43,950 bases of DNA, from NCBI GenBank assembly GCA_051439605.1, contig JBFRWN010000012.1:1-43950 (forward strand). Direction: 5' to 3'. Below the pieces are notes generated by a model, which saw only the letters and a program-made list of their open reading frames with translations, was not told the DNA's origin and ran no database searches. Numbering within the stretch: the first letter of the stretch is position 1; the number at the start of each line of letters is the position of its first letter. This document shows positions 7,630 to 43,950 of the stretch, in pieces. The position numbers and the translations under genes are program-made. The stretch comes from Synechococcus sp. Its GTDB lineage: Bacteria; Cyanobacteriota; Cyanobacteriia; Thermostichales; PCC-7336.

Positions 7630-7664
7630 TTGTTTCCCACTGCAGCACCGTTAGGAGCATCGGC

Positions 7665-18212: not shown

Positions 18213-19403
18213 TCATTGACGCTCACCTATTTCCGCCAGGCGATAGGCTGCTCCTAAACCAGCAGCAATTTCCTCCGCTGAAATCTTGCCATCGCTGTTA
18301 ACGTCTAAGGCGTCAAACACTGCATCGGTCCCCGCCCACTCTTCGCGGGTGACGAATCCATCCCCGTCTAGGTCGTAAACCTGGAAAACCTCCTGCGCTG
18401 CACCGCTGACTGCCTCTTCGCCGTTAAGGAGGCCTAACCGTTCGGTCAGCAAATTTTCCAGGGCTTCTAGGGCTTTGGAAAAGCCTTTAATCCCCTCAGC
18501 CAATTTCTCAGAGGCCATCCGATTGCTCGCATGCATTTTCTCGAAGGTGAATTTGTCCACTGATATCTGTTCGATATCTAACTGTTGGGCGATCGCAGGA
18601 TCAAGCTTTCTGGGTAATTCAGCCGTCGTCGAACGTAATTCATCCAGTAGCTTGGGGGAAATGGTCAGCAGGTCGCACCCTGCCAACTCGCAAATCTCGC
18701 CAATGTTCCTGAAACTGGCCCCCATAACCTCAGTTTGGTAGCCGAACTTCTTGTAATAGTTATAGATTTTGGTGACGGACAGCACGCCGGGGTCTTCCGC
18801 GGGCGGATAGCTATCTCGTCCGGTGTCTTTCTTGTACCAGTCGAGAATTCGACCCACAAAAGGAGAGATCAGCGTGACACCAGCTTCAGCACAGGCCACT
18901 GCTTGGTGGAAGCCGAATAATAGAGTCAAGTTGCAGTGAATGCCTTCTTTCTCTAAGACTTTAGCAGCGCAAATCCCCTCCCATGTGGAGGCAATTTTAA
19001 TCAAAATGCGATCGCGAGAAATCCCGGCTCTTTCGTATTCTGAAATCAGATAGCGAGCTTTGGCAATGGTGGCGTCGGTGTCGTAGGATAGCCGCGCATC
19101 CACCTCAGTGGACACTCGTCCCGGTACGATTTCTAGAATTTTTTTGCCAAAGGAAATCGCCAGGCGATCGAAGGCCAGGGAGACGATATCGGCTTCGCTT
19201 GCTCCCGCTCCGGCATCGTTCTTGGCCTGCCGCAGCGTATCGGCCACAATTTCTCGATACTCCGGCATTTGTGCCGCTGCCGTAATCAGAGAGGGATTCG
19301 TGGTGGCGTCGCGAGGGGTAAATTGCTCGATCGCTTGAATGTCACCTGTATCGGCAACAACGACGGTTACATCTTTTAGATAATCTAGTAAGCTTTTCGA
19401 CAT
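18213..19403 (-). CDS. tal: Transaldolase with C-terminal EF-hand pair
   Basis: [34 protein letters not shown] hands [12 protein letters not shown] and [18 protein letters not shown] before ATG 19403. Confidence 0.96.
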
Positions 19404-19486
19404 GGTTGACTCCAAATTGATAGATTCAGTGGCTTAAAGTCAGCTTTGTTTTGATTGCGATTACCTAACCCCAGAGCAAAGTTCCT

Positions 19487-20059
19487 TTAGGGACAGCCCA
19501 ACACTTGAATGGTGTAAGTATCTTGAACCGTTCCGGGACCACCGATCTTCAGATTGACCTCGTAAGGTTGGGTGCCCTCGCGGGGTTCTCCGGAAAATGC
19601 GTGTAAGTGTTGCTCAGACATGGGGAATTTATCTTCTTCGTGAACTAGATCGGCAGTCCCGTCTTCATATTTGAGATACATGTCGATATCGTAATTACCG
19701 ATATCTTGAGACAGCACTGAGGCGTAATAGCGCGAAAAAGTTGCTTCTTCAGGAACCTCAAAATCAGTATTCCAATTGGGGCCAAACCAAATCAGATATA
19801 GGTTTGGCACCCGACCGGGGGAGGCGGTTTTCGTCACTTCTGTCCCTTCACCGCCTATCACGGGCAAAGGTGTGCAACCCTGCGGTATGGGCTCCCCAGT
19901 CTCCACGGCAGGTAAACCCTGCTCTACTCGGATGCAGCGGCTATTGAGAGGGAACTCGCTGCATAAGGTATCCAACGAGACTTTAATGTTCGAGCGCGCT
20001 GGGATAGCGACCGCACATATCGCTGCTGCAGCTAGTAACGCAGTGTTAATGATTTTCAT
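19487..20059 (-). CDS. Hypothetical secreted protein
   Basis: SD AAGGAG before ATG 20059; signal peptide; CSEFPLNSRC motif followed by a beta-rich domain (NWNTDF…MYLKY…QPYEVNLKIG). Confidence 0.75.
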   Translation of the reverse strand: MKIINTALLAAAAICAVAIPARSNIKVSLDTLCSEFPLNSRCIRVEQGLPAVETGEPIPQGCTPLPVIGGEGTEVTKTASPGRVPNLYLIWFGPNWNTDFEVPEEATFSRYYASVLSQDIGNYDIDMYLKYEDGTADLVHEEDKFPMSEQHLHAFSGEPREGTQPYEVNLKIGGPGTVQDTYTIQVLGCP

Positions 20060-20191
20060 CAGGTCACTCCTTGAAAAGAACAGTTGCATCTTCGCCCCCG
20101 ACGAAAATTGCCTTGCTGCGATCGTAAACATTGCAACTCATTGGAGATGAGTCGAGTGCAGGCAAAAGTCCTCGGGAGCAGGCAGTCTCGG

Positions 20192-21517
<1,326 letters not shown>

Positions 21518-21538
21518 TCAGATTTTGATTGAGGACAG

Positions 21539-21576
21539 AGATTAACGAGACAGATTAACGAGACAGATTAACGAGA
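21539..21576. repeat. 13-bp tandem repeat (AGATTAACGAGAC) x ~3 overlapping the ackA stop
   Basis: agattaacgagac agattaacgagac agattaacgaga read directly from the sequence. Confidence 0.9.
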
Positions 21577-22802
21577 TTGCCGGACTGTAATTGCCAGCAG
21601 GCTTGCGCGATCGCCCAATCCTCCTCCGTACGCACGACCAACACCCGCACCGCCGAATCGGTAGTAGCGATATCTCGATCCACTGGAAAAGAACTGTTTT
21701 TCTCCCCATCCAGCTGCAAACCTAAAAACTCGAATCCCGTGCAAGCTTTCTCGCGCACGACCGCTGAATTTTCACCGATCCCGGCGGTAAACACAATCGC
21801 ATCCAAGCCCCCTAGGCTGGCCACCATTGACCCGATGGAGGCTCGCAGGCGATGGATAAACATGTCGAAGGCCAATTTGGCCCGTTCGCTGCCTCGGCCG
21901 ATCCCCTCCAACACTGTCCGCAAATCAGCAGAAATCCCCGATACACCTTTAAGGCCGGATTCTTTGTTGAGCAGGGTGTCTAGGCGATCGACGTCAAAAC
22001 CATACTCCCGCATTAGATGGATTGGGATCGCCGGATCGATGGAGCCGCTGCGGGTGCCCATCATCAACCCCTCCAGCGGGGTAAATCCCATTGTGGTGTC
22101 GATACTGTGGCCGTTGCGGACAGCGGCTAGGGAACAGCCGTTGCCCAAATGGCAGGTCACGAGTTTGAGGGTTTCTAAGGGCTTACCCAGTAGGTCGGCG
22201 GCTCGGTGGGCGCAAAATTGATGGCTGATGCCATGGAAGCCGTAGCGACGGATGCCTTTTTCGTACCATTCGTAGGGGAGGGGATAGACGGCTGCCTCTG
22301 GTGGCATGTGACTGTGGAAGGCGGTGTCGAAGACTGCCATCTGGGTAACGTCCCCCAATGCCTGCTCAATCGCTTTGATGCCGGACAAGTTCGCGGGATT
22401 GTGGGCGGGGGCCAAGACGGTAAGGCGGGAGATGGCCGCTTTCACGTCCTCTGTAACAGGAGTTGCTTCTGAATAGTCCGCTCCGCCGTGCACCACTCGA
22501 TGGCCAACCAAATCGATTTCCGACAGCTGGTGCAGCACTCGGGTTTCCCCTGACACCAGGGTGTCCAGCAGCAGGGGGATAGCACGATCGCGATTCCCAT
22601 CCGTCAGCTCCACTTTGAGAACCGCTCCGTTGGCTTTCACGTTCATAACGCCACCAGCGGCCGCCACAGTCCAATCGATATGGGCTTCCCACACTGGTAG
22701 GGGCGGGGAAGGAGGCAAACCGTCAGCGGATAGCTCGTACAAGCAGCTTTTTTGGCTGCTGGAGCCTGCATTGAGCACCAGTATCTTCATAGAGACAGCC
22801 AC
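21555..22802 (-). CDS. ackA: Acetate kinase
   Basis: LVLNAGSSS, GHRVVHGG, APAHN, RRYGFHG, HLGNG and FTAGIGEN; alternative ATG at 22790. Confidence 0.97.
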   Translation of the reverse strand: MAVSMKILVLNAGSSSQKSCLYELSADGLPPSPPLPVWEAHIDWTVAAAGGVMNVKANGAVLKVELTDGNRDRAIPLLLDTLVSGETRVLHQLSEIDLVGHRVVHGGADYSEATPVTEDVKAAISRLTVLAPAHNPANLSGIKAIEQALGDVTQMAVFDTAFHSHMPPEAAVYPLPYEWYEKGIRRYGFHGISHQFCAHRAADLLGKPLETLKLVTCHLGNGCSLAAVRNGHSIDTTMGFTPLEGLMMGTRSGSIDPAIPIHLMREYGFDVDRLDTLLNKESGLKGVSGISADLRTVLEGIGRGSERAKLAFDMFIHRLRASIGSMVASLGGLDAIVFTAGIGENSAVVREKACTGFEFLGLQLDGEKNSSFPVDRDIATTDSAVRVLVVRTEEDWAIAQACWQLQSGNLVNLSR

Positions 22803-22832
22803 TGTACCCCCTGTAGCAAGCAGGATTGAGGT

Positions 22833-23138
22833 CTAGGTATCGGCACGATTGTCGGGCCCAAATTCGTCGATCATGGCGTCTGTGTGCAGGACGGTATCTG
22901 CGATTGAGAGGGAATGGCTGAGGACGCGAAAGTAGTTGATTTTTTCATTCACCTTGCTGAGCTTCTCTTTTAAGCCGCTTTCATCCTCTCCCTCACTCAT
23001 CTCCTCCAGCTGACTGAGGAGGCGACCGCGAATGGTGGCGTAATGGGACTGAGCATTTTTGAAGCGGTTGTGCAGTTCGGTCACCGCAGAGATGACCGAG
23101 AGATCGCCGATGGTCGCATTCGCTTTGCTATTGGTCAT
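22833..23138 (-). CDS. Hypothetical 101-aa helical protein
   Basis: ATG-start ORF filling the gap between co-oriented genes; coiled-coil-like composition. Confidence 0.7.
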   Translation of the reverse strand: MTNSKANATIGDLSVISAVTELHNRFKNAQSHYATIRGRLLSQLEEMSEGEDESGLKEKLSKVNEKINYFRVLSHSLSIADTVLHTDAMIDEFGPDNRADT

Positions 23139-23204
23139 GGTGAATTTCGCTAGAGTTTCGTATTCTTCGGGATAATAACAGTTCCTTCGATCGGGTCATA
23201 AAGC

Positions 23205-23849
23205 TTACGTGCATGGCAACGCCTGCAATTGACTGTCTAAATGGGAGCGATCGGCTATGGAGTGGAACAGCGGTCCTCGGTTGGCGAGTTCCACGACGCT
23301 GAGGGCGGCGGTGGGCATGTCCATGCGATCGCGGTAGCGACCGACATCGATTCCGGCTAAGGAGCAGAGCATGATGCGGATGGTGGCTTTGTGGGAGACC
23401 ACCAACACGCAGCCGTCAGCGTAAGCTTGCTCGATCTCCTCCAGCACGAGGGCGGACCGGCGGGCGATATCGACGGCTCGCTCGCCGCCCGTTGGACCGT
23501 TCCAAGCGGGGTCCGTGAGCCAGCGGACGTAGTCGTCGTGAAATTCGCGATTGACTACTGTGGGATGCTTGCCCTCCCACTGGCCGTAGGACACTTCTTT
23601 CAGTCCATCGCGAGGTTGAACCTCCAAGCCAGTAGCCTGACTCAAGGGGGTGGCCGTCTGGCGCGCCCGGAGCAAGGGACTGGAGAAGATGGCTTTCCAA
23701 GGGATGGAGCGATAAGCGTTTGCGAATGCTTCGGCCATGCGCATGCCATCGGACGTCAGACCGGGATCGGACTCGGGGGTACCGCAAAAGCCCCCCGTGC
23801 GGCTGTAGGCGGTTTGTCCGTGGCGAAGGAAGTACAGCATCAAACTCAT
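23205..23849 (-). CDS. Histidine phosphatase (PGM-like) family protein, copy B
   Basis: YFLRHGQT, SSPLLRA, E..YGQWEG and VVSHKATIR; ATG at 23849, 2 bp after the paralog's stop. Confidence 0.92.
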   Translation of the reverse strand: MSLMLYFLRHGQTAYSRTGGFCGTPESDPGLTSDGMRMAEAFANAYRSIPWKAIFSSPLLRARQTATPLSQATGLEVQPRDGLKEVSYGQWEGKHPTVVNREFHDDYVRWLTDPAWNGPTGGERAVDIARRSALVLEEIEQAYADGCVLVVSHKATIRIMLCSLAGIDVGRYRDRMDMPTAALSVVELANRGPLFHSIADRSHLDSQLQALPCT

Positions 23850-23851
23850 GG

Positions 23852-24490
23852 CTAAGTCCCGGCTCGCTGACGCAGGCGATCGCTCAGATGGGAGCGGTCC
23901 CCCAAGAAATGCAAGAAGGGACCGTGCTCCCGAAACTCCACCACGCTGACCGCGGCCACCGGCATATTGATGCGATCGCGATATCGCCCCACATCGATGC
24001 CAGCCAAAGAGCACAGCATGATACGAATGGTGGCTTTGTGGGATACCACCAGGACGTTGCCACTGTCGTAGGTTTGCTCGATTTCCTCCAGCACCAGGGC
24101 GCTGCGGCGTGCAATGTCCACTCCCTTTTCCCCGCCAGTGGGGGAATTCCAGCCGGGGTCAGCCAGCCAGCGCACGTACTCGTCGTGATATTTGTCATTT
24201 ACCTCCTCTGGAGTCATGCCCTCCCACTGGCCGTAAGTAATTTCCTTCAGGCCATCCCGCAACTGAATATCGATCCCCAGCCCATCGCACAGGGGTTTGG
24301 CTGTATGGATGGCCCGTTGAAGGGGGCTGCTATAGACCGCCGTCCAGGGCAAGGCATGGTAAGCCTTAGCAAACTCCTCTGCCATTTCGTAGCCGGACTC
24401 GGTTAAATCCAGGTCGAGACTACCGCAGTAGCCCCCAGCTTGGCTGGAGGTAGTTTCCCCGTGGCGCAGAAAATAGAGTTTTAAACTCAT
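23852..24490 (-). CDS. Histidine phosphatase (PGM-like) family protein, copy A
   Basis: YFLRHGET, SSPLQRA, EITYGQWEG and VVSHKATIR. Confidence 0.93.
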   Translation of the reverse strand: MSLKLYFLRHGETTSSQAGGYCGSLDLDLTESGYEMAEEFAKAYHALPWTAVYSSPLQRAIHTAKPLCDGLGIDIQLRDGLKEITYGQWEGMTPEEVNDKYHDEYVRWLADPGWNSPTGGEKGVDIARRSALVLEEIEQTYDSGNVLVVSHKATIRIMLCSLAGIDVGRYRDRINMPVAAVSVVEFREHGPFLHFLGDRSHLSDRLRQRAGT

Positions 24491-24511
24491 TGAATCAACG
24501 TAGAGAAGTTT

Positions 24512-26098
24512 TCAAAGTAGAGAAATTTTCAAGCTGGAGGGCTGGCCGCGATCGCCGCTCACCACAACACCCCGATCGTTTGCCGCTAAATGCCGCACAA
24601 TTTTGTAAACCGCTTCCACGCGATCGGGGGCTCCTGCTTTGGAGGCTAAAGTGGCCAAGTCTAGAGGCGAGCCGGTCGATTTCAGAATCGCCATCACTTG
24701 CGTTTGCAATTTCAGCACCGAAGCTGCCGCCTTCTTCCCGGCTTCCACCCCCGGCTGGTGGTAGGCGTTGATGTTCACTAGAGATGCATAGAACCCCACC
24801 GCCCGCTCGTACAGGGCAATCAAAGCCCCCACAGTGCGGGGATCGACTTGGGGAATGGTCACCGTAATCGAATCCCGCTCGTTTTCGTACAGTGCCTGTC
24901 GAGTCCCCTGCAGGAATCCCGATAGATAATCTCCAGTGGTGACCCCCGGTTCCACTTCCACCGAAGGGCCGGAGCGATCCTGCAGCACCTCGATAAAGGT
25001 GGCAAAGAAATTCGGTACTCCTTCCCGCAGTTGTTGGACGTAGGCGTGTTGGTCGGTGGAACCTTTGTTGCCGTATACGGCAATCCCCTGATGAACGGTG
25101 TTGCCATTGAGGTCTGTTTCTTTCCCCAAAGACTCCATAATCAGCTGCTGCAGGTAGCGGCTGAACAGCAACAGGCTGTCTTTGTAGGGCAGAACCACCA
25201 TATCTTTCTTGCCCTGGCCGTCACCGGAGGCATACCAGCAGAGGGCCAGTAAGGCGGCAGGATTGGTGCGGATGTCTTTGATGCGAGTGGCAGCATCCAT
25301 TTCCTTAGCCCCTGCCAGCAGTTCGCGGATGTCAATGCCTTGCAGTGAAGCAGGCAGTAGGCCGACGGCCGACAATTCCGAGGTACGTCCCCCCACCCAG
25401 TCGTACATGGGAAACTCTGCTAGCCAGCCTTCGGCTCTGGCCAGCGCATCCATTTTGCTGCCCTCCATCGTGGTGGCGACGGCGTGGCGGGCAAAGCTCA
25501 AACCCATTTCCTCGTAGACTTGCTTGACCTCCAACATCCCGTTGCGGGGTTCGGGAGTGCCGCCGGACTTGCTGGTGTCGAGGATCAGGGTACTGTTGAG
25601 GCGATCTTTCAATCCGCTGAGGACGCGATCGATGCCAGCTGGATCGGTGTTATCGATGAAGTGAATCGCCAGAGGAGGATCGTTTGGAGCAAGGGCAGAG
25701 GCAACAAACTGGGGACCCAGAGCCGATCCACCAATGCCGATCGCCAGCAAGTCGGTAAACTTCGGCGCCTCGGGGGGGTGGATTGCTCCACTGCGAACCT
25801 TTTGAGTAAAGTCTTCGATATGGTCGATCGCTTCGCTAATTGCCTGACTAAGTTCTGGGCTGGGAGCTAATTCGGGAGTGCGCAGCCAGTAGTGACCCAC
25901 CATGCGATTTTCATCGGAGTTAGCGATCGCTCCCCTCTCCAGAGCCTCCATATCCAGAAAAGCCTTGTCGAATTTGGGCTTCATGCTGGCCAGTAACCGA
26001 TCGTCAAACCGCATTCGGCTGACATCTAGATACAGGTCCAAGCCTTCGTGATAGTAAAGCCAATCTTGATAGCGTTGCCAAAGGGTCGCTGCGTCCAT
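24512..26098 (-). CDS. pgi: Glucose-6-phosphate isomerase (cyanobacterial type)
   Basis: [38 protein letters not shown] and [12 protein letters not shown]. Confidence 0.97.
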
Positions 26099-26226
26099 GG
26101 GTCAACTCCAAATCTTGAGCGGTGGCCGAAGCAAATGTCTTGAAAAACCATCGAACAAACAAGCGCGGGGAATTGTTTCCCACTGTGAGGAACTCATTTT
26201 GAGAATCCTAAATACCAAGAAACTTT

Positions 26227-26247
26227 GGGGCATGTCGGTCATGCCCC
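26227..26247 (-). terminator. Perfect 8-bp hairpin just downstream of xfp (mRNA-stabilising stem or weak terminator)
   Basis: GGGGCATG-tcggt-CATGCCCC, 13 bp after the xfp stop; no clear U-tract. Confidence 0.5.
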
Positions 26248-26260
26248 TGCAGCGATCGCC

Positions 26261-28708
26261 TTAATAAGGCCACTTCCACTCGCGGATTTCGGGTTTATCG
26301 ATCCCGTAGGTGAAGGCGTATTGGGTGTTTTCGATGATGGCGTTCTTCATGCGCTCTTTGACGTAAGCCGCCCGAGAGCCCAATGAGGGGACACGATCGA
26401 TGACGTCAATCACGAGATTGAAGCGATCGATTTGGTTTTCCATCGCTAGCTCCAGCGGAGTATTGATGTTGCCTTTTTCCTTGTAGCCGCGCACGTGAAT
26501 CCGATCTTGATTCGTTCGGCGATACACCAGCTTGTGAATCAACCAAGGATAGCCGTGGAAGTTAAAGATAATAGGCTTATCGGGAGTAAACAGCGTGTCG
26601 AAGTCTCGGTTTGACAGGCCGTGAGGATGTTCTTTCTCGTCCACCAGCGTGGCTAAATCGACCACGTTGATAAAGCGAACTTTCAGATTGGGGAACTCCT
26701 CCCGCAGAGTGGCCGTTGCCGCCAAAGATTCCATCGTCGGAATATCGCCGCAGCAGGCCATCACCACATCCGGTTCGTCGGGGGCAGTGCCGCAATCGTC
26801 GTTGCTGGCCCATTCCCAAATGCCCAGGCCCTTGGTGCAATGGGCGATCGCCTCGTCCATCGTCAAGTACTGCAGGTGCATCTGCTTGTCGGAGACGATG
26901 ACGTTAACGTAATCGGTGCTCTTCAAGCAGTGATTTGCCACCGATAGCAGGCAGTTGGCATCCGGTGGGAAATATACCCGCACCACATCGGGGCTCTTGT
27001 TGGTGACGAGGTCGATGTAACCGGGATCTTGGTGGCTGAAGCCGTTGTGATCCTGCCGCCATACCAGCGAAGACAGCAAAATGTTCAGGGAGGAAATCGG
27101 AGCTCGCCAGGGGACTTCGTTCTTGCAAATATCCAGCCACTTGGCGTGCTGGTTGAACATCGAGTCCACCACGTGGGCGAAAGCTTCATAAGTATGGAAG
27201 AAGCCGTGACGACCAGACATCAGGTAGCCTTCCAACCACCCCTGTAGGGTGTGCTCGCTCAGCATCTCCATCACCCGACCGTCTGGTGACATCTGGCTGC
27301 CGTCTTCATCTTCGGGCAGGTAGTCTGCCATCCAAGCCTTTTTGGAAACTTCGTAGACGGCTTGCAACCGGTTAGAAGCAGTTTCATCCGGGCCAAACAG
27401 GCGGAAGTTATCGGTGTTCAGCCGCATCACTTCACGCAGTAGGTAGCCCAGCACCTTGGTATTTTCAAACTCCACAGTTCCAGGCTTGGGAACGTCAATC
27501 GCCAGTTCTCGGAAATCCGGCATGCAAAGCGCTTTGCGAATCTTTCCACCATTCGCGACAGGATTGTCGCTCATACGGCGATGTCCCTTGGGAGCCAGCT
27601 CCTTCAGTTCCGGCAGCAGCGTGCCGTTCTCGTCGAACAGCTCCTCCGGCTTGTAGCTCTTCATCCATTGCTCTAGCAGCGTTAAGTGCTGGGGATTATC
27701 GTGCATCCCCCCCATCGGCACTTGGTGGGCTCGCCAGAAGCCTTCGACCTTATGGCCGTCCACCTCTTTGGGGCCGGTCCAACCCTTCGGGGTCCGCAGA
27801 ATAATCATCGGCCAGCGAGGACGCTTGGCTACGCCACTGCTGCGGGCATCGGCTTGGATGGAGCGGATGAGATGGATGCATTCATCCATCGTGGCGGCCA
27901 TCGTCTGGTGCATTTCTTCGGGGTCGTCCCCTTCCACAACGTAGGGGGTGTAGCCGTAACCCCGGAATAGGCTTTCCAATTCTTCTCGCGAAATTCTGGC
28001 CAGCAGGGTGGGGTTGGCAATTTTATAGCCGTTCAGGTTCAAAATCGGCAGCACAGCCCCGTCGCGAATGGGGTTGAGATATTTGTTGGAATGCCAAGCC
28101 GTCGCCAAGGGACCGGTTTCGGCTTCCCCATCCCCCACCACAGCCGTCACAATCAGGTCGGGATTGTCGTAGGCAGCTCCATAGGCATGGGAAATGCTGT
28201 AGCCGAGTTCGCCGCCCTCGTGGATGGAGCCGGGTAGCTCGGGGGTACAGTGACTGCCGATCCCTCCGGGGAAAGAAAACCACTTGAAGAGGTTGAGCAT
28301 GCCCTCTTCATCTTCGCCCTTATCAGGATAGACCTCTGAATAGGTGCCCTCTAGATAAACGGGACCGATCACGCCCGGTGCGCCGTGGCCGGGGCCAGCC
28401 ATATAGATGGCATCCAGGTCGTGCTTCTTAATCAGCCGATTCATGTGGATGTAGATGAAGCTGAGGGCTGGCGACGATCCCCAATGTCCCAACAATCGCT
28501 GTTTGATCTGATCTTCCTTGAGGGGCTCTTTCAGTAGCGGGTTGTCCTTTAGGTAGATCATGCCTGCCGCCAAGTAGTTGCACGCCCGCCAGTAAGCGTG
28601 CATCTTTCGCAGTTCTTCTGCACCCAGCGGTGTACCTTGAACTGTCGAGCCCACTTGCCCTTCTCCACCGACACCTCTTACGGAGGGCTTTTCTGGAGTT
28701 GATACCAT
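26261..28708 (-). CDS. xfp: Phosphoketolase (XFP family)
   Basis: [26 protein letters not shown]…NGYKI (TPP motif), FGPDETASN and [18 protein letters not shown]. Confidence 0.97.
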
Positions 28709-28839
28709 AACGTTCTCCTAATTTTGCATTACTGGACTGCGTAAACCCCTTTATAAAGAGTAAAAAAAGACGCTCGAACTAAAACGATTTAATAGCAAGT
28801 AGCTCTAGTGACATAATCCGAACAACTAACTGAACATCC

Positions 28840-29075
28840 TATAAGAAATGACAGCGATCGCCAGTAAATCTAATGATTTTCTTATATCTTTAAAATTGAG
28901 AATCTCACTGTACTTGAAACTGAAATTCACCATCATTCTAGAAGTAAAACTCAATGTATGAGTTTTTAGAGGACATTAATGTCAAGTTCCTTGAACTTTG
29001 CCAATTGTATAGAGGAATTCTTCCTTGAGATCGGGCTGGCATGAGTCTCTCTATCGTCTGTTTTGTGACACAAAA
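28840..29075. promoter_or_regulatory. AT-rich xfp upstream region with clustered palindromes (candidate operators)
   Basis: AAAACTCA-N5-TGAGTTTT 28946-28966; GACATTAATGTC 28972-28983; AAGTTC-N3-GAACTT 28984-28998; TTTTGTG-A-CACAAAA 29061-29075. Confidence 0.45.
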
Positions 29076-29261
29076 TACATGACAAAGGGGAAGATACCGT
29101 GACAGGCATTATTTTGCACAAATAGAATAGAGTTCCACAATGCATTATTCTTCAAGACGTATCGATCTCCATTTCAATCCATTAATGGTTGAGCATTTTG
29201 ATACTGATTTTATCTACATAGTTGTCATTCCTACCCATCCCCCTTCATTGGCATAAGAGGT

Positions 29262-30299
<1,038 letters not shown>

Positions 30300-30390
30300 T
30301 CAAATGTCAATGAATGTCTGGGCGTGCCACGGGCATGGGGAATGGATGCGAGAGTTGTCCTACTTGCAGGTATGGCAACTGCCAGCTGGA

Positions 30391-31401
30391 TTAAGCAGGA
30401 ACCTGCGGCCTGTAAGCGACTTCGTTCTTGAGGGGGACACCCCGTTCGAACGCAGAGATGTTAGAGAGCGTGGTGACCGCAATATTTTGCAGGGCATTGC
30501 GGGTAAAGAACCCCTGATGAGCGGTGATGACCACGTTAGGGAAAGATTGAAGAAGCTGAATGGCATCGTCCTGAATGATGGTGTCGGACAAATCTTCGAA
30601 AAAGAGATTTTCCTCGTCTTCGTAAACGTCAATGCCGAAATAGCCGATAACTCCGGATTTGATAGCATCGATCGCCGCCTTGGTATCGATCAACGCCCCT
30701 CGACTGGTGTTAATCAGCATTGCCCCCGGTTTCAGTTCCTCTAGAGTATCGGCATTAATTAAGTGGTGGGTTTCCGGAGTGAGGGGACAGTGCAGCGAGA
30801 CGATATCTGACTCCGCAAGTAATTCCGGCAAGCTGACGTATCGTCCCCCCATCTCTGCAATCGCTGGATTTTCAAACGGGTCGTAGGCCAGCAAGTGGCA
30901 GCCGAAACCGTGCATGATGCGGGCAAAACACACCCCGATCTTGCCGGTGCCCACAACACCAACCGTGGTTCCGAATAGGTCAAAGCCTAGCAATCCCTCT
31001 AGAGAGAAGTTGTCGTCGCGGACGCGATTGTAGGCTCGATTCAGCTTGCGATTCAGCATCAAAATCAGGCCGACGGCATGTTCGGCCACTGCATAGGGTG
31101 AATAGGCCGGTACCCGCACCACCGATAGCCCCAGTTTCGCCGCCACCTTCAGATCGACGTGGTTGAATCCTGCCGATCGCAAAGCAATTAGTTGGGTACC
31201 GCCAGCAGCAAGTACCTCCAGGGCATCGGCATCGAGGGTATCGTTAATGAACGCGCAGATTGCGGGAAATCCCTTGGCCAAAGGAGCGGTGACAGCAGTC
31301 AAGCGAGGCTCGAAAAAAACCAGCTCGTGTTCGCCATCCCGATTGGCCGCCTGCAATGATTCTCGGTCGTATCTCTTGCTGCTAAAAACTGCGATTTTCA
31401 C
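30391..31401 (-). CDS. ldhA: D-lactate dehydrogenase (D-2-hydroxyacid dehydrogenase)
   Basis: LRSAGFNHVD, RVPAYSPYAVAEH, GTGKIG, INTSRG, DVYE.E and TAHQGFFT. GTG 31401 has SD GAGGTG; alternative ATG at 31422. Confidence 0.92.
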   Translation of the reverse strand: MKIAVFSSKRYDRESLQAANRDGEHELVFFEPRLTAVTAPLAKGFPAICAFINDTLDADALEVLAAGGTQLIALRSAGFNHVDLKVAAKLGLSVVRVPAYSPYAVAEHAVGLILMLNRKLNRAYNRVRDDNFSLEGLLGFDLFGTTVGVVGTGKIGVCFARIMHGFGCHLLAYDPFENPAIAEMGGRYVSLPELLAESDIVSLHCPLTPETHHLINADTLEELKPGAMLINTSRGALIDTKAAIDAIKSGVIGYFGIDVYEDEENLFFEDLSDTIIQDDAIQLLQSFPNVVITAHQGFFTRNALQNIAVTTLSNISAFERGVPLKNEVAYRPQVPA

Positions 31402-31441
31402 GATCTCACCTCTTGAATGCATCTCCTTTTGAGCGAACCAG

Positions 31442-33979
31442 TTACTTCAAACTCAAACCCGCCTTGCTCTGAACGTACTCCTCCAACTCCACCTTGAACG
31501 GCTTGGCATTCCAGATGTCGCGGCAGTAATCCTGAATGGAGCGATCGCTGGAAAACTTGCCGGAGCGGGCGGTATTGAAAATGGACATGCGCGTCCAGCT
31601 GTCAGTGTCTAGATAGGCTTGACCCACCCGATCCTGACAGTCAATGTAGGACTGGTAGTCCGCCAGCACAAAGAAGGGATCGCTGTAGAGCAAGGAATCG
31701 ACGATGGGTTTAAACAGGTCGCGATCGCCGTGGGAGAACAGACCGGAGCCGATCAAGTCGATCGCCTGCCTCAGTTCGGAATTGGTGTTGTAATAGTCCA
31801 AAGGGTTGTAGCCACTGGCCTGAAGACGGGCGACTTCATCAGTGGTCAGTCCAAACAGAAAGAAATTCTCATCTCCCACTTCCTCTCGAATCTCCACATT
31901 GGCACCGTCCAGCGTGCCGATGGTTAAAGCACCGTTCATCATAAATTTCATGTTGCCGGTGCCGGAGGCTTCTTTGCCCGCAGTGGAAATCTGCTCGGAT
32001 AGATCCGCCGCTGGATAGACTGGCTGGCTATTGGTGACGTTGTAGTCCGGCACGAAGGCTACCTTGAGGCGATCTCGCACGTCAGGATCGCCGTTAACGA
32101 CATCACCCACCGAGTTGATCAACTTGATAATCAGCTTGGCCATAAGGTAACCGGGGGCCGCCTTGCCACCAAAGATGAAGGTGCGAGGAGTAATATTTAA
32201 GTTCGGATTTTGCTTGATGCGGTTGTAGAGGGTAACGATGTGCAAGACATTCAAGTGCTGGCGCTTGTATTCGTGGATGCGCTTCACCTGAATGTCAAAC
32301 ATGGTGTTGGGATCGAGCAGGATCCCCGTGCGAGCTTTGAGGCGATCGGCCAGTTTCTGTTTGGCCGCCAGCTTCACCTGACGCCATTCCTGGCGGAATC
32401 CGGCATCGTCAGCGAAGGGTTCTAATTTCTTAAGGTCCTCTAGGTGACCGATCCAGTTGTCCCCGATGCGGTTGGTAATCAGGTCCGCCAGCTTGGAATT
32501 GCTCAACACCATCCAGCGACGGGGGGTAACCCCATTGGTAACGTTGAAGAACTTACTCGGCCAGTAGTCGTAAAAGTCTGGCATTAGATCTTTCTTGACC
32601 AATTCGCTGTGCAGGGCAGCCACTCCGTTGACGGCATGGCTACCTACCGTAGCCAGATTGGCCATGCGGACGTATTTCTCGCCGCTGTCGTCAATCAGCG
32701 ACATGCGGGCCAGCTTGCCGTCATCCCCCGGATAGTGAATGCGGATGCGATCGAGAAATCGCCGGTTGATTTCGTAGACGATCTCTAAATGCCGGGGCAG
32801 GATGCGACCAAAAATGCTGAGTGGCCATTTCTCCAGCGCTTCGGGCAAGAGGGTGTGGTTGGTGTAGCCAAAGGTTTTGTAGGTGATGTCCCAAGCTTTA
32901 TCCCAGTCCATGTGGTGCTCGTCCACCAACAACCGCATTAATTCGGCGACGGCAACGGAGGGATGGGTATCGTTCAGTTGAGCGGCAAAGCTCTCGTGGA
33001 AAGTGTCTAAACTCTTCCCTTTATGCAAATGAATGCGAATCATGTCTTGCAGGGAGCAGGAGACGAAGAAGTATTGCTGCTCCAGTCGCAGTTCCTTCCC
33101 CTGAATGGGTTCGTCATTGGGATAGAGTACCTTGGTCAGGTTTTCCGACACGGTCTTCTCGTTTACCGAGCCGTAGTAGTCCCCTACGTTAAACCGCTGG
33201 AAGTCAAAGGATTCACAGGCTTCCGATTTCCATAGCCGCAACGTATTGGCGGTATTGACCTTGTAGCCCAGGATGGGGGTGTCGTAGGGAATACCTTTTA
33301 GTACATAGTCCGGCACCCATTGGACGCGATAATCGCCATGTTCGTCAGTGTAGGGTTCGGTGTGGCCGCCGAACTTGACCATGACGCTGGATTCAGGTCG
33401 GGCTAATTCCCAAGGATTGCCGTACTGCAACCACTTATCGGTGATCTCCACCTGCCAGCCATCCCGGATCTCCTGATCGAAAATGCCGTATTCGTAGCGA
33501 ATGCCGTAGCCGATCGCCGGAACTTCCAGAGAGGCGAGAGAAGCCAGGTAGCAAGCGGCTAGGCGACCGAGACCGCCATTCCCCAAGCCGGGTTCTTCCT
33601 CCTGTGCGATGAGTTCGTCCAGATCGAGGCCGGACTGTTCGACTGCTTGACTCACCCGATCGTAGATACCCAAATTGATCAGGTTATTGCCCAAATGCGG
33701 CCCCTCTAAAAATTCTGCCGATAGGTAGCACACCACTTTGACATCTGTCTTGATGTAAGTCCGGACTGTGCCAAGCCACCGTTGCAACAGGCGATCGCGC
33801 ACCGTATAGGCCAACGCCATGTAGAAATCGTTGAGGGTGGCAATCTCGGGTAACTTGCCCTGGATGTAATAGAGGTTATCCGCCATGGCGCGCCTCAGGG
33901 TTTCGACGCTTAAGCCGGTGCGATCGTCTTCAGTGGTAGGTGTATCAGCTGGACGAATTCTATTGGGCGCTTGAGTCAT
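31442..33979 (-). CDS. glgP: Glycogen/alpha-glucan phosphorylase
   Basis: LGNGGLGRLAAC, QLNDTHP, KRIHEYKRQ and EASGTGNMKF (PLP lysine). Confidence 0.98.
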   Translation of the reverse strand: MTQAPNRIRPADTPTTEDDRTGLSVETLRRAMADNLYYIQGKLPEIATLNDFYMALAYTVRDRLLQRWLGTVRTYIKTDVKVVCYLSAEFLEGPHLGNNLINLGIYDRVSQAVEQSGLDLDELIAQEEEPGLGNGGLGRLAACYLASLASLEVPAIGYGIRYEYGIFDQEIRDGWQVEITDKWLQYGNPWELARPESSVMVKFGGHTEPYTDEHGDYRVQWVPDYVLKGIPYDTPILGYKVNTANTLRLWKSEACESFDFQRFNVGDYYGSVNEKTVSENLTKVLYPNDEPIQGKELRLEQQYFFVSCSLQDMIRIHLHKGKSLDTFHESFAAQLNDTHPSVAVAELMRLLVDEHHMDWDKAWDITYKTFGYTNHTLLPEALEKWPLSIFGRILPRHLEIVYEINRRFLDRIRIHYPGDDGKLARMSLIDDSGEKYVRMANLATVGSHAVNGVAALHSELVKKDLMPDFYDYWPSKFFNVTNGVTPRRWMVLSNSKLADLITNRIGDNWIGHLEDLKKLEPFADDAGFRQEWRQVKLAAKQKLADRLKARTGILLDPNTMFDIQVKRIHEYKRQHLNVLHIVTLYNRIKQNPNLNITPRTFIFGGKAAPGYLMAKLIIKLINSVGDVVNGDPDVRDRLKVAFVPDYNVTNSQPVYPAADLSEQISTAGKEASGTGNMKFMMNGALTIGTLDGANVEIREEVGDENFFLFGLTTDEVARLQASGYNPLDYYNTNSELRQAIDLIGSGLFSHGDRDLFKPIVDSLLYSDPFFVLADYQSYIDCQDRVGQAYLDTDSWTRMSIFNTARSGKFSSDRSIQDYCRDIWNAKPFKVELEEYVQSKAGLSLK

Positions 33980-34086
33980 GGTCGGGTCCTCTTGTCAATC
34001 AGCTTGAATGTCGAAGTAGTGATGTCAGGAACGAGGTTCGGGGGGCGAGGTAAATCAGGCGTTAAACTCTTGAGGTTGAACCGGCT

Positions 34087-34785
34087 TCAATCATCCAAAA
34101 CAACTTTGTCGGTCACGGTTCCCTGCGAGTCAATGTCGTAAACGATCGGCACCCCCGTCTTTAACTCCAGTTTGGGAACCTCCTCTGGACTCAAGCGGTC
34201 CAGCTCCATGATGATGGAGCGCAAAGAATTGCCGTGGGCCGAAACCAACACGTCATCCCCTTGCTTGAGGTGGCTCATGATGCGATCGCGAAAAAACGGC
34301 ACCGCCCGCTTTAGGGTGTCCTCCAAACTCTCCCCTCCAGGGGGCCGCACCGAGAAAGACCGCCGCCATTCGTGCACCTGCTCGTCCCCAAATTTCTCAG
34401 CAGTTTCGGCTTTATCCAGTCCCTGTAAATCGCCGTAATACCGCTCGTCCAACGCTGCACTGGGATAGATTGGCAACTCTTCAGAGCAAACTCCTTCGTA
34501 GCGATCCCATCCGTGCCAGTTGGGATCGTTTTTGCCATGCTTGATCACCGGGATTTTGCCATTACAAATCTCGTCAACTTCAGTCAAACAAATCACCGCC
34601 GTTTCCATCGCCCGCATCAGCATGCTGGTAAAGCAAACATCTACTCGATAATCCCTCAGCTTGCAGGAGGCGATCGTTGCTTCCGCCCTCCCCCTTTCGC
34701 TCAGCGGTACGTCAACCCAACCCGTGAACTTATTGACTGCATTCCAAAGGCTCTGACCGTGTCGAATTAATATCAACTTTGCCAT
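34087..34785 (-). CDS. gpmA: 2,3-BPG-dependent phosphoglycerate mutase
   Basis: RHGQSLWN..NKFTGWVD, ERYYGDLQG, WRRS and AHGNSLR. Confidence 0.93.
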   Translation of the reverse strand: MAKLILIRHGQSLWNAVNKFTGWVDVPLSERGRAEATIASCKLRDYRVDVCFTSMLMRAMETAVICLTEVDEICNGKIPVIKHGKNDPNWHGWDRYEGVCSEELPIYPSAALDERYYGDLQGLDKAETAEKFGDEQVHEWRRSFSVRPPGGESLEDTLKRAVPFFRDRIMSHLKQGDDVLVSAHGNSLRSIIMELDRLSPEEVPKLELKTGVPIVYDIDSQGTVTDKVVLDD

Positions 34786-34807
34786 CAACTACTTACCCTA
34801 GATAATC

Positions 34808-34857
34808 GTCCTTTGTCCTTTGTTCGTAGTCCCACTGGCAACCCAATGACTAATGAC
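34808..34857. repeat. STRR-like heptamer repeats between pyk and gpmA
   Basis: GTCCTTT x2 plus two degenerate units, then CAATGAC TAATGAC in the opposite sense; together an imperfect hairpin. Confidence 0.55.
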
Positions 34858-36274
34858 CGATCGTATGAATCTTCAAAAAGTTAGTTCCCCGGGCGTGCCG
34901 AGTTGGAATCCCCCCCACGATCAAAATCTTGTCCCCCTTCTGCACCAAATTGCGACGAACTAAATTGTTTTCGGCTTGAGCGACAAGCTCTTCAAACGTT
35001 TCCACCTGGCGATCGATGAGCAAGGGTATGACACCCCAAATCAGATTCAAACGGTGGTAAACCTTTCGATCGGGCGTGAAGGCAATCACCGGTGCCTTGG
35101 GACGCTCTTTGGAGGCCACCAACGCGGTATACCCAGTACTGGTAAAGGCAACGATGCATTTCAAATCGAGAATGTGGTCGATATCGTTGAGGGCTTCCAC
35201 GAGAGCGTGAGTTTCATCCGTCTCGGAGGGAGGATAGTTGACGAATTCGATCTCCGGCTCGATGTCGCTGGCAATGCGGGCCATTATTTCCACCGCCTTC
35301 ACAGGAAATGCCCCCACCGCCGATTCCCCCGACAGCATGACCGCATCGGTGCCATCGGCGATCGCGTTGGCTACGTCGCTGGCTTCCGCCCGCGTGGGTC
35401 GGGGGTTGCGAATCATGCTCTCCAGCATCTGGGTGGCGGTAATAACCGGGATACCTCGGCGATTGCATTCGGCAATGATTTTCTTCTGCAACAGCGGTAC
35501 TTTTTCAGAACTGACTTCCACCCCCAAGTCTCCTCGGGCTACCATGACCGCATCGCACTCATCTAGGATTTCGTCTAGGTTGGCAATCGCCTGTGGCTTC
35601 TCGATTTTGGCTAGCACGGGAGTATCTTCAGCTCCCAGCTCGGCCAACAGATTTTTGAGGGTGCGGATATCCTCCCCCTTGCGCACGAAGCTCAAAGAGA
35701 CGTAATCGACCCCCTGAGACACGCCAAACTCCAGGTCTTGCTTGTCTTTGTCGGTCATTGACGGCAAACGCACGTTGAGTTCGGGCAGATTGACCCCTTT
35801 CCGACTTTTGAGCTGTCCCCCTTGCAGGATCTGGCAATGAACTGCTGGGGCCTCCACCTGCTTAACCTTCAGCTCTAAGAGCCCGTCATCCAAAAGCACT
35901 TGCATGCCGGGTTCCGCATCTTCGGCCAGATAGGGATAGTCGATTGCAACCGTATTGGGTTCACCTGCAAAATTGGCGATTGGCACCAGTGTCAGAATTT
36001 TGCCTTCGAGTAGTTCTAGGGAACCATCCGGCAGCGTACCGACGCGGATCTTCGGACCCTGTAGGTCTTGCAAAATTGTAATCGGGGTATCCAGTTCTTC
36101 AGAAACAGCTCGGATCGTTGCGACGGTTTTGGCATGGTCCTCGTAGCTGCCGTGGGAAAAGTTCAGCCGCGCCACGCTCATGCCCACTCTGACCATTTGC
36201 TTTAACACTTCTGGGGAACTGCTGGCGGGGCCAATCGTGGCAACAATTTTTGTATGTGGAGATGGAGAATTCAT
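34850..36274 (-). CDS. pyk: Pyruvate kinase (short form, no C-terminal PEP-utiliser domain)
   Basis: [36 protein letters not shown] and MLSGESA; ATG 36274 or GTG 36295. Confidence 0.97.
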
Positions 36275-37263
36275 GGATAGCTCGCTCGCGAGCACTGCAG
36301 GTATGGTTCTAGAGCGGTAGCCACCTAAAATTTGGCAAATTCATCCGCAGACAGGGGAGCAATTTGAGCCTCAGGGGCGATCGCTCGATCTATATCTATA
36401 TTTAATGATCATGCTTCTTTAATTCTCATACTTCTAACCATTTGAAGCTTGTCGCAACCAAAGAGATTTAGGTCTGTATAGGAACGACTCAGATTAAAGT
36501 CAATCACATTCTAGATCCACTTTTCGAAAGCGATCGCAGCGAGCCTAAAACCATAAGATTCTTAGCAATCAAAGCAATAAAATCATGCACAATATGCAAA
36601 TAACAATTTATACTGAAAGTACAGATTATGAGTTGACACTACATTGTTGTTTATGTCGAGTTTAAGAGAAGGTAAAGATTGCTCGATTTTTTCTTGAAAC
36701 ATACCTAGGGTTCGCGGCAATAACTTTCTTGACAAAGGCTCGAGTATTCGGGTCGATCATATATAGGGTGTTATTAACATCTGCGTCTGAGTCGTACTCC
36801 CAATGTTTTTTTATTTCTTAAATTTTTCTCGTTGGGCACGATCCCTCAGAGCTCTAGCATTAAAGTTAGAGGGCTAGTTCATCATTCTTAAATTTTGTGG
36901 CTTTTGAAGTCGCAGAGAGCATCACAGCGATGTGAATGCTGGATTTACGGAAATCTGTTTACAGAAATCTGGCTGTCATAGCTGAGGTAGATCGAACGAT
37001 GTGTTATTGCCGTTATTGCTGTCTTGACGTGATTCGCGATCCTCATGATTTAGATTTATGCGTCTTTACGTAAACAAACATCAAACATGTTCCTTTCGTA
37101 AAAACACAAACAACAAGCGGCCGGATAATAAAATCCTAGAGAAATTTCCATGTGTTAATGATAGCTAGTTCCTAAAGATTAAATTAACGAACTTGATGTT
37201 TGACTATCTTGTTTTAAGGTAAAGGTTGGATCGTGAATCCAATCATATTAGTCAGGAAAAGGG

Positions 37264-37632
37264 GTGATGACTAGCCAGATGAATACACTTTCCCCCATTA
37301 GGGTTATTGCGAATTTTGCGAAAGCAGTTCCGATCGGACTGAGTTTGTCTTGCCTCTTCATGGCACCAACCTCAGCTCAATCGGTGTCCTCTTGCGAACA
37401 ATACGCAAGAGACTATGCCCGTCGAAATTCCCAGGGTCAGGCTCTGAGAAGTACAGGTCGAGGCGCTCTTGGAGGTGCAATTATCGGGGGGATCGCAGGT
37501 GACGCTGGAGTTGGGGCGGGTGTCGGGGCACTAGTAGGAGGCATCAGTGGATCGGCCCGCCAATCTTCAGATTACGATTACCTCTACAGGATTGCGTACA
37601 ACGACTGTATAAACGGTCGAGTCCGTTACTAG
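37264..37632 (+). CDS. Secreted glycine-zipper (YMGG-like) protein
   Basis: Signal peptide; GALGGAIIGGIAGDAGVGAGVGALVGG flanked by two Cys. Confidence 0.75.
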   Translation: MMTSQMNTLSPIRVIANFAKAVPIGLSLSCLFMAPTSAQSVSSCEQYARDYARRNSQGQALRSTGRGALGGAIIGGIAGDAGVGAGVGALVGGISGSARQSSDYDYLYRIAYNDCINGRVRY

Positions 37633-37684
37633 CTGAAGACGGCAAGTGAATGAGTTCGAATAGTTATTAGAGGTGTTGACTACA

Positions 37685-38017
37685 ATGAAATTCTCTGTTG
37701 GAAAATTTGCCCTGACCGTTGCTTCTGTTTCTGCATTTGTTCTTGCTGCATCCTCTATTGCGATCGCGCAAGAAGGCGAGGAAAGCAGCACCGCTGGCAC
37801 TGTAGATGTGACTGCATTAACGTGCAGAGATTTACTGTTGATGGAAGGAGACGATGAAGAGTCTGCGATCCTGTTCGTGCAAGGCTATATCAGCGGAAAA
37901 AATTCAGAGACGGTTATCGACACGGATGCAGTCAGGGTAGCTAGCGATCGCAGCCGAGAACAGTGCGTTGACGAGCCAGACTCTACAATCCTGAGCGTTT
38001 TCGAACAAAACCGCTGA
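37685..38017 (+). CDS. HdeA/HdeB-family periplasmic chaperone-like protein
   Basis: Signal peptide (AIA/Q); acidic; TCRDLL…FVQGY…QCVDEP fits the HdeA/B two-Cys pattern. Confidence 0.7.
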   Translation: MKFSVGKFALTVASVSAFVLAASSIAIAQEGEESSTAGTVDVTALTCRDLLLMEGDDEESAILFVQGYISGKNSETVIDTDAVRVASDRSREQCVDEPDSTILSVFEQNR

Positions 38018-43949: not shown

Positions 43950-43950
43950 C

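Follow-up and report, generated by a model that had tools for sequence, protein, structure and literature searches.

Organization of the cluster, its second copy and related clusters

We analysed a DNA stretch of 43,950 nucleotides (hereafter the window), which is the whole of contig C12 (JBFRWN010000012.1) of a 4.90-Mb Synechococcus sp. assembly (GCA_051439605.1; 143 contigs, 99.98% complete, 4.12% contamination). The window carries a cluster of carbon-metabolism genes, next to the end of a sugar phosphotransferase system (PTS). The cluster consists of 14 consecutive open reading frames (ORFs) on the minus strand, covering 18213..36295 by ORF extents, or 18213..36274 with the likelier ATG of pyk at 36274, which is indicated by alignment with a second copy on contig C109 and with the congener G001. 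Its reading order is pyk, gpmA, glgP, ldhA, gap, xfp, pgi, HP1, HP2, hyp101, ackA, eno, hyp214 and tal (Table 1), with intergenic spacings of 2-162 bp and one exception, the 553 bp that separate gap from xfp. A first-pass annotation, made from the letters of this DNA, had listed the same 14 genes in this order and had seen no pfk, fba, tpi, zwf or gnd in the window. Both statements were borne out by NCBIfam and Pfam scans of 35 window ORFs, among which none of these five genes was found. Nine of the ten cluster enzymes passed the curated NCBIfam cut-off; the exception is LdhA, a D-2-hydroxyacid dehydrogenase whose best NCBIfam matches are D-lactate dehydrogenases, all of them below cut-off. 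As a measure of chance, 0.06% of 3401 segments of 12 kb, taken from the genome outside the two cluster contigs, hold two such genes.

Table 1. Features of the window, with positions counted from its first letter
Feature	Position	Strand	Basis or remark
pyk, short (~474-aa) pyruvate kinase	34850..36274	-	TIGR01064 above cut-off
gpmA, phosphoglycerate mutase that depends on 2,3-bisphosphoglycerate	34087..34788	-	PRK01112 above cut-off
glgP, glycogen phosphorylase	31442..33979	-	TIGR02093 above cut-off
ldhA, predicted D-lactate dehydrogenase	30391..31422	-	PF02826/PF00389
gap, GapA-like (Gap1-type) glycolytic glyceraldehyde-3-phosphate dehydrogenase	29262..30287	-	TIGR01534 above cut-off; best model PRK15425
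xfp leader, ~40 nt with ribosome-binding site	28709..28750	-	near-identical in three long-cluster copies
xfp, phosphoketolase	26261..28708	-	PRK05261 above cut-off; ATP-regulatory motif at residue 721
pgi, glucose-6-phosphate isomerase	24512..26098	-	PRK14096 above cut-off
HP1, histidine phosphatase, intact RHG/R/E/H catalytic set	23852..24490	-	PF00300
HP2, tandem paralogue, 65% to HP1	23205..23849	-	missing from C109 copy; congener G001 has it
hyp101, small predicted two-helix hairpin protein, without Pfam name	22833..23138	-	rare family
ackA, acetate kinase	21555..22802	-	TIGR00016 above cut-off
eno, enolase of cluster-linked type	20192..21490	-	TIGR01060 above cut-off
hyp214, likely exported protein	19487..20131	-	hydrophobic leader in sequence
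tal, transaldolase with C-terminal EF-hand pair	18213..19415	-	PRK12309 above cut-off; PF13202
Divergent trio: glycine-zipper protein, HdeA/HdeB-family acid-stress chaperone (37673-38017), DUF3887	37264..38902	+	PF06411; also beside C109 copy
Extra PRK-family kinase	40682..41689	-	PRK07429 above cut-off; GC 0.437, without HIP1
3' end of ptsG (EIIC-EIIB-EIIB' glucose PTS permease)	43485..43950	-	PF00367; cut by contig end; Cys-less second EIIB

The first-pass annotation was silent on two findings, the second copy of the cluster and the adjacent PTS. C109 (25.4 kb) repeats the whole cluster order with only HP2 missing, at 85% nucleotide identity and 84-96% protein identity, and no other duplicated segment of the assembly comes near the cluster in size. 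In each of the 13 gene pairs both members are intact; the ratios of nonsynonymous to synonymous substitution (dN/dS) are 0.04-0.23 and the synonymous divergence (dS) is 0.29-1.30, and both copies are under purifying selection. In the congener G001, the same 14-gene order is spread over three short contigs and is 80-86% identical to both copies over long blocks; this genome has in addition a small xfp-HP-ackA cluster. The C12 copy is chromosomal, since the genes to its left, cysS, trmO and phoH2, match those of congeners at 69-81%. In G001 and G003 other genes follow phoH2, and the cluster therefore came to this site by insertion or rearrangement. The cluster holds 18 HIP1 sites (GCGATCGC), that is 1.0 per kb as compared with 0.86 per kb genome-wide. 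These sites had been taken earlier as a sign of long residence in a cyanobacterial genome; a cyanobacterial history fits them indeed, but a transfer from another cyanobacterium fits them equally.

Extra copies of several cluster genes are found elsewhere in the genome: tal (C32, 71%), pgi (C70, 69%), glgP (C98, 69%; C69, 62%), eno (C98, 58%), gap (51% and 49%) and a long pyk (C57, 44%). The cluster eno stands at 74-78% to the cluster-linked eno of G036 and G038. Second copies of eno, pyk, pgi, gap and glgP, which the first-pass annotation had proposed to look for, are thus present, and the cluster genes are accessory and not the sole housekeeping set. No close copy of xfp, ackA, ldhA or gpmA exists outside the two clusters; a housekeeping gpmI lies on C79. 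The GapA-like gap is also restricted to the clusters, because the other two gap genes, on C44 and C65, score best on different models, PRK07403 and PRK07729. What is confined to the clusters is the fermentation set: xfp, ackA, ldhA, gpmA and the GapA-like gap.

The genome also holds two pfk, fba, zwf, gnd, tpi, tkt (on C17), pgk, pgm, rpe (on C43, by a motif match), pyruvate:ferredoxin oxidoreductase (PFOR) and the large subunit of a NiFe-hydrogenase. A single motif gave no match to rpi in the genome, no family search having been made for it; pgk was found by family search. The L-lactate dehydrogenase-like gene of the genome scores as a malate dehydrogenase. The gene pta (C51; L174 133-2008) is split into two frames near position 1190 and may be a pseudogene or an assembly error; with pta frameshifted, Xfp would be left as the main source of acetyl-phosphate.

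We opened regions from 13 other genomes, selected for strong or neighbouring matches, and from four plasmids. Clusters of this kind are widespread, since variants occur across the opened cyanobacterial genomes: xfp-eno-EFhand-pgi-ldhA-glgP and xfp-glgP-pyk in G038, xfp-EFhand-pgi-glgP-kinase-pyk-gpmA in G039, xfp-glgP-HP-ackA in G043, xfp-glgP-tal in G031 and G057, pyk-gpmA-tal-HP-HP-HP in G055, and gpm, L-ldh, pyk, glgX, xfp, class I fba, glgP and ppk1 on plasmid pC052_A of Nostoc sp. C052. At the sites opened in G002 and G003 we observed only xfp-glgP-HP-ackA. The 14-gene form is the most complete among the opened regions and was found only in this genus. The earlier statement that cyanobacterial carbon genes are usually scattered was overstated, small xfp clusters being present in most of the relatives of this selected set. 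In congeners, genes for a receiver-thioredoxin-reductase fusion and for a cyclic nucleotide (cNMP)-binding histidine kinase come after a small xfp cluster (L025 14841-18091; L028 7694-10897); in the present genome this pair lies on C7, without an xfp cluster.

The adjacent glucose-type PTS and its distribution

The last 466 bases of the window, 7.2 kb from pyk, are the end of an EIIC-EIIB-EIIB permease gene, and the encoded fragment is 85% identical to residues 515-662 (the C-terminal 148) of the full PtsG of G001. C109 ends inside ptsP (EIIA-HPr-EI), which starts about 3.5 kb from tal, and another contig, C54, breaks off at the matching position in a second EIIA-HPr-EI gene. These two ptsP starts are about 80% identical at first and become 97-100% identical toward the break, which accounts for a repeat left unassembled. 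The whole ptsP-ptsG operon of G001 aligns to the ends of C54 and C109 and to the end of the window at 80-81%, with about 3 kb unassembled. Either each cluster has its own PTS operon, or a single operon lies between both clusters and links C109 to C12. In run X1 the ptsG tail is present as a second allele; the contigs compared did not show which contig, C54 or C109, continues the right end of the window.

In the ptsP starts of both C54 and C109, EIIA and HPr have their phospho-accepting histidine motifs, and the C54 gene scores above cut-off with TIGR00830 and TIGR01003. PtsG of G001 reaches 650.9 bits with the glucose-specific equivalog TIGR02002, whose cut-off is 591.8, and the cyanobacterial permease aligns to E. 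coli PtsG at E 2.6e-166. We predict that this PTS is likely a glucose-type importer (PtsP-PtsG). No GlcP-like permease was found in the genome, the best PF00083 match being of 32.5 bits over a partial stretch. A gene of the GH13 alpha-amylase family is divergent from the C54 ptsP (L072 1-1818) and is duplicated on C38 (L073 571-2430) at 94% identity; no signal peptide is evident at its N-terminus.

PtsG above the TIGR02002 cut-off occurs in 40 of 401 genomes of the class, all in four families (24/40, 8/46, 7/46 and 1/4); in a phylum-wide sample, 6 of 401 exceeded the EIIC cut-off. A scan of named genomes, covering the best 80 of 117 matches, gave 79 loci. Of these, 67 were taken to be cyanobacterial from their label or identity, and the remaining 12 belong to Rhodocyclaceae-type betaproteobacteria and Serratia. 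A quick tree was built from 59 PtsP rows (the rows of sufficient length, together with this genome's two partial copies) and has few outgroups. In it the cyanobacterial proteins form one group (SH-aLRT 97), which also takes in a single long-branch row of fructose type. PtsP of this genus is sister to the copies of Leptolyngbya PCC 7375, Adonisia and Phormidesmis (support 100), suggesting that the PTS may have been transferred from such filamentous cyanobacteria.

At least two fermentation genes lie near the PTS (within 10 kb; mean flank of 12 kb) in six of the 67 cyanobacterial loci, and no locus has just one; the genome's own rate is 1.1% of its segments. Co-oriented runs occur in other PtsP branches, xfp-ldh-ptsP-ptsG in L105 and ptsP-ptsG-gap-gpmA in L108, and in G044 xfp-glgP is 9 kb from the PTS. 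LdhA (E<=1e-120) is present in 35 of the 40 PtsG genomes and in 182 of the 361 others, a comparison made by hand that assumes the same sampled genomes and includes kin that are not independent. Within families, the corresponding counts are 24/24 vs 6/16, 6/7 vs 20/39 and 4/8 vs 20/38. The link between PTS and fermentation genes is recurrent but loose.

Among named strains, Leptolyngbya sp. PCC 7375 (L094) and Adonisia turfae CCMR0081 (L095) carry the same PTS, both with glgP adjacent, as do Planktothrix and Nodosilinea strains; such cultured strains make the PTS directly testable. Genes resembling nagB/nagA were observed within or near seven PTS loci, including L145, L146, L102, L103 and L149, two of them with a second divergent permease, and N-acetylglucosamine is a possible substrate for some members. 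G087 (L083 7475-12689) has a fructose-type PTS operon, composed of EIIA-HPr-EI, a PfkB kinase and EIIB-EIIB-EIIC. A search of titles and abstract starts, which left subscription journals mostly outside, found no paper on a cyanobacterial PTS. In its available part, PMC10515406 names the cyanobacterial sugar transporters Glc/GlcP, FrtRABC and Gls and mentions PTS once, in an E. coli reference; the characterised glycoside PTSs in Table 3 of PMC13543919 belong to three phyla, none of them cyanobacterial. The accessible portions of PMC1183210, PMC9043136, PMC8100219 and PMC11312443 added nothing on a cyanobacterial PTS.

Predicted fermentation route and competing explanations

Both Xfp copies contain the motif PWX2HX3YRX7HXRX31R as an exact match at residue 721, with all eight residues. 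According to PMC10365998, this is the ATP-regulatory motif of ATP-inhibited phosphoketolase (XPK); the enzyme of Synechococcus elongatus (SeXPK) cleaves fructose 6-phosphate (F6P), xylulose 5-phosphate (Xu5P or X5P) and sedoheptulose 7-phosphate (S7P) and is inhibited by ATP, whereas that of B. longum is not, and the XPK-ACK route is cited there for survival under dark, anaerobic and osmotic stress. The best solved structure for Xfp is that of SeXPK (8IO8), with 1304 bits as compared with 835 for B. longum. By its sequence, Xfp is assigned to the ATP-inhibited type, and activity on F6P is predicted from this closest structure.

We consider it probable, if by no means certain, that the accessory set ferments hexose phosphate to acetate and D-lactate through an Xfp that low ATP is predicted to turn on, with glycogen, and likely the adjacent PTS, as the supply. 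All functions, fluxes and controls given here are predictions. Low ATP in the dark or in anoxia would switch Xfp on. GlgP would free glucose 1-phosphate from glycogen, housekeeping Pgm and the cluster Pgi would convert it to F6P, and PTS glucose would enter directly as glucose 6-phosphate. Xfp would then split F6P into acetyl-phosphate and erythrose 4-phosphate, which Tal would combine with another F6P into S7P and glyceraldehyde 3-phosphate (GAP). S7P would be either cleaved by Xfp again or handed to housekeeping Tkt; its cleavage by Xfp, S7P being accepted by the S. elongatus enzyme, would let the route run without transketolase and would account for a cluster that includes tal but leaves out tkt. 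Ribose 5-phosphate would give X5P via Rpi/Rpe, which Xfp would cleave. AckA would make ATP and acetate from acetyl-phosphate, Gap, housekeeping Pgk, GpmA, Eno and Pyk would convert GAP to pyruvate, and LdhA would reoxidise NADH; Pgm, Pgk, Rpi and Rpe would be supplied from outside the cluster. On paper, two hexoses would yield three acetate and two D-lactate in redox balance, with 3.5 ATP per glycogen glucosyl unit as compared with 3 by the Embden-Meyerhof-Parnas (EMP) pathway. One phosphoenolpyruvate (PEP) would be made per hexose, equal to the PEP spent per PTS glucose, and the yield would be 2.5 ATP per glucose.

We advance more tentatively, as a possibility on balance doubtful, a broader reading, in which a benthic cyanobacterium keeps two copies of a heterotroph-style sugar fermentation unit, where a glucose PTS feeds a transketolase-free, ATP-gated phosphoketolase route with PEP made equal to PEP spent, a coupling that recurs in other lineages among the approximately 10% of Cyanophyceae that bear the PTS. 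If this is true, PTS-bearing phototrophs of mats and sediments would, in dark anoxia, ferment glucose from outside as well as their own glycogen. In microbial mats, a major flux of carbon runs through the fermentation of glycogen to acetate that cyanobacteria carry out at night (PMC3935151). Which pathway carries this flux is mostly inferred; the cluster gathers ten candidate enzymes at one site, and both a product ratio and a label pattern can be predicted from it. The PTS would add a route for external sugar that is not listed for cyanobacteria in the available parts of the reviews cited above.

A number of observations weigh against the main reading. The cluster is without pgm, pgk, tkt, rpe and rpi, and with two pfk, fba, tpi, zwf, gnd, PFOR and hydrogenase in the genome, carbon need not pass Xfp or end in lactate. 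A search with consensus sequences in the DNA upstream of pyk, xfp, prk and ptsP of the genome gave no box resembling those of FNR, Rex or NtcA, and no FNR, Rex, NtcA, CRP or LexA box was common to both copies or enriched in 47 ptsP leaders. In this genome EI and EIIC are not assembled, EI, EIIC and EIIB being complete in G001, and the PTS of G001 is not beside its cluster but on a 41-kb contig. Furthermore, 61 of the 67 PTS loci have no such genes nearby, four of the six fermentation-linked loci belong to one clade (L094-L098), and the association of ldhA with the PTS is strong in one family only. In Crocosphaera ATCC 51142, cce_5186 is presumably the glgP of the cluster on its linear chromosome. 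In Table 1 of PMC12518598, this GlgP2 (cce_5186) is 2.5-fold higher in the dark than in the light with nitrate, unchanged without nitrate and 10-fold lower in the nitrogen-fixing dark.

The full EMP and oxidative pentose phosphate pathways of the genome, and the regulator boxes that were not found in the scanned upstream regions, would also suit a general night-time catabolic kit, in which isoenzymes raise glycogen breakdown for respiration and mixed fermentation, Pfk and Zwf carry much of the flux and there is no dedicated bifid-type route. Related clusters vary freely in content, that of the Nostoc plasmid including a class I aldolase. We nevertheless find this explanation unlikely, because the genes unique to the cluster, xfp, ackA and ldhA, are those of substrate-level phosphorylation and of an NADH sink, and because pfk, fba, tpi and zwf are not among the annotated neighbours in the opened clusters, save for that aldolase. 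Xfp could also act mainly as a Calvin-cycle brake in fluctuating light, a role shown for SeXPK in PMC10365998, with the cluster serving this brake and salt or osmotic stress and not anoxia. The shared ATP motif and the adjacent extra PRK-family gene are in favour of it, but xfp and ackA suffice for a brake, as in the 3-4-gene clusters of the congeners G002 and G003, and pgi, gap, gpmA, eno, pyk and ldhA are left unexplained, so that we regard a brake as very improbable.

That the PTS is a mere neighbour is a serious contender, although we lean slightly away from it: accessory genes (PTS, extra prk, DUF389, remnants of insertion sequences (IS)) would have piled up at the same island without any functional tie. 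It agrees with the many PTS loci devoid of fermentation genes, with the separate position of the PTS in G001 and with the IS-like repeats at 40333-40588 and 43201-43460; moreover, if one operon joins C109 to C12, the two adjacencies are a single event. However, the adjacency recurs in separate PtsP branches (the L094-L098 clade, L105 and L108, and G044 at its greater distance), two of the adjacencies are co-oriented runs, and all six loci with any such gene have at least two. It may also be asked if one cell has two clusters at all, or if C109 is a mis-binned contig of a related species. The assembly is fragmented and has 4.1% contamination, C109 carries no core genes, and 85% identity is near species-level divergence in the genus (core genes vs G001, 72-81%). 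On the other hand, of 3179 ORFs of at least 200 aa, only 51 pairs reach an identity of 75% or more; the cluster and its prk account for 14 of them, and no ribosomal or core single-copy gene was recognised by eye among the remaining pairs. The GC content of C109 (0.516) and its HIP1 density (0.86 per kb) equal the genome values, the second allele in run X1, possibly the source run, has a depth of 35-43 as compared with 24-39 for window pieces, and the two ptsP starts converge as gene conversion within a cell would produce. We therefore disfavour a co-binned relative and consider it improbable.

Remaining genes of the locus and comparison with known systems

The family of the histidine phosphatase HP1 is conserved (4206 matches at E<=1e-40), its catalytic set R9 H10 G11 E83 H151 is invariant in 24 homologues, and HP1-type phosphatases recur in xfp, tal and glgP clusters of relatives. 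The nearest fold is that of phosphoserine phosphatase 4IJ5/4IJ6 (31% identity). Structure did not indicate a substrate, the best structures being 23-31% identical phosphatases with differing substrates. In GapMind, Synpcc7942_2078, presumably the gene beside xpk-ackA in S. elongatus, is only a dispensable candidate for phosphoserine phosphatase. HP1 may serve in the repair or release of sugar phosphates, and the conserved histidine phosphatase that travels with xfp clusters is a candidate enzyme of the pathway.

For hyp101, we observed seven close and 19 distant homologues, none of them named, and a best Atlas score of 0.80; its model (pLDDT 88) gave only generic coiled-coil or helical-hairpin matches in a fold search, and dN/dS between the C12 and C109 copies is 0.23. 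No Pfam or NCBIfam family matched hyp214, its Atlas matches being unnamed cyanobacterial clusters below the recognition threshold; a paralogue lies on C135 beside DUF389/DUF3887. The leader in its sequence makes hyp214 likely an exported protein, possibly a passenger gene. EF hands recur in such clusters, fused to Tal in the window and as free 160-aa proteins in G038 and G039, where they sit between xfp/eno and pgi (L029 13619-14104, L034 11789-12271), hinting at calcium control. The xfp leader was kept as the remaining intergenic DNA drifted between the three long-cluster copies. Because it is limited to these copies (3 of 193 loci overall, and not upstream of 22 other xfp genes in the retrieved loci), we do not call it a conserved RNA element. 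Rfam gave zero matches in the window, and a scan of 18000-37300 for promoters and terminators was at chance level (14 vs 13.8 and 16 vs 18.8).

In both copies, an HdeA/HdeB-family chaperone gene is divergent from pyk (in the second, L001 1690-2037), which would fit protection against excreted acids. The extra PRK-family kinase is also beside the C109 copy (C109 22131-23138) and was not found in five relatives; it stands at 34-36% to the two other PRK-like genes of the genome, and its best PDB match is the archaeal-type PRK/UK 5B3F. Its copies have a dS of 0.17, far closer than the cluster genes, and it therefore arrived or was converted later. To the left of the cluster, a gene for a protein of 1066 aa that combines an SLT transglycosylase domain with an M15 peptidase domain (13347-16547, plus strand) is inserted between trmO and phoH2, which are directly adjacent in two congeners. 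The genome has two cysS genes, 52% identical, one in the window (8948-10408, plus strand) and one on C91, and fragments resembling phnE and a TauE exporter at 7119-8033 (plus strand) are likely gene remnants. The DNA was found in marine sediment metagenomes of three studies, the best match of which may be the source run; no RNA run was among the sequencing runs listed as containing it.

The bifid shunt is the sole hexose route of Bifidobacterium, a host without the upper part of the EMP pathway and without glucose-6-phosphate dehydrogenase, and ends in an L-lactate dehydrogenase. The first-pass annotation had seen the core of this shunt in the cluster and had proposed a bypass of Pfk and of the oxidative pentose phosphate pathway. 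The gene content (Pgi, Xfp, Tal, AckA, lower glycolysis and Ldh) and the predicted ratio of three acetate to two lactate agree with the first proposal, and the bypass holds for the cluster taken alone. For the cell neither applies as it stood, since the host keeps two pfk, fba, zwf and gnd, so that the route is not its sole one for hexose; in addition, Xfp would be of the ATP-inhibited type, Ldh is of the D-type, and tkt is absent from the cluster. The system likely operates in the manner of a bifid shunt that low ATP turns on, yet it falls outside the shunt as defined.

For Crocosphaera (Cyanothece) ATCC 51142, Welsh et al. (2008) reportedly described a linear-chromosome cluster for glucose and pyruvate metabolism. 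Both that cluster and the present one are a second, clustered glycogen-to-lactate/acetate set beside scattered housekeeping copies. In contrast, the present cluster has a D-type Ldh, includes tal, gap, histidine phosphatases and hyp101, is chromosomal beside phoH2-trmO-cysS, exists in two copies and is adjacent to a PTS. A role in energy metabolism is suggested for the linear element (PMC3187577), and L-lactate dehydrogenase and an F6P-phosphoketolase shunt are in the metabolic model of strain 51142 (PMC3487460; see also PMC8066212 on the linear chromosome, the dehydrogenase and the shunt). Literature searches on phosphoketolase clusters and on this linear chromosome turned up no account of the present gene order. 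With XPK-ACK of S. elongatus PCC 7942 (8IO8; PMC10365998), the cluster shares the closest structure, the eight ATP-motif residues and an ackA in the same run, whereas here Xfp stands among ten enzymes spanning glycogen to both end products.

Like the glucose PTS of E. coli (PtsI, HPr, Crr and PtsG; 8QSR, 9HNP), the PTS passes the glucose-specific equivalog. It differs in that EIIA, HPr and EI are fused in one protein, in an extra C-terminal EIIB minus the catalytic Cys, and in its host, an oxygenic phototroph. The two-gene ptsP-ptsG operons of Rhodocyclaceae are alike in having, where the motif was found, a first EIIB with Cys and a second without. In comparison with these systems, the cluster is of a known kind; its new aspects are how complete it is, that two copies of it are retained, the reading without transketolase and the glucose-type PTS next to it.

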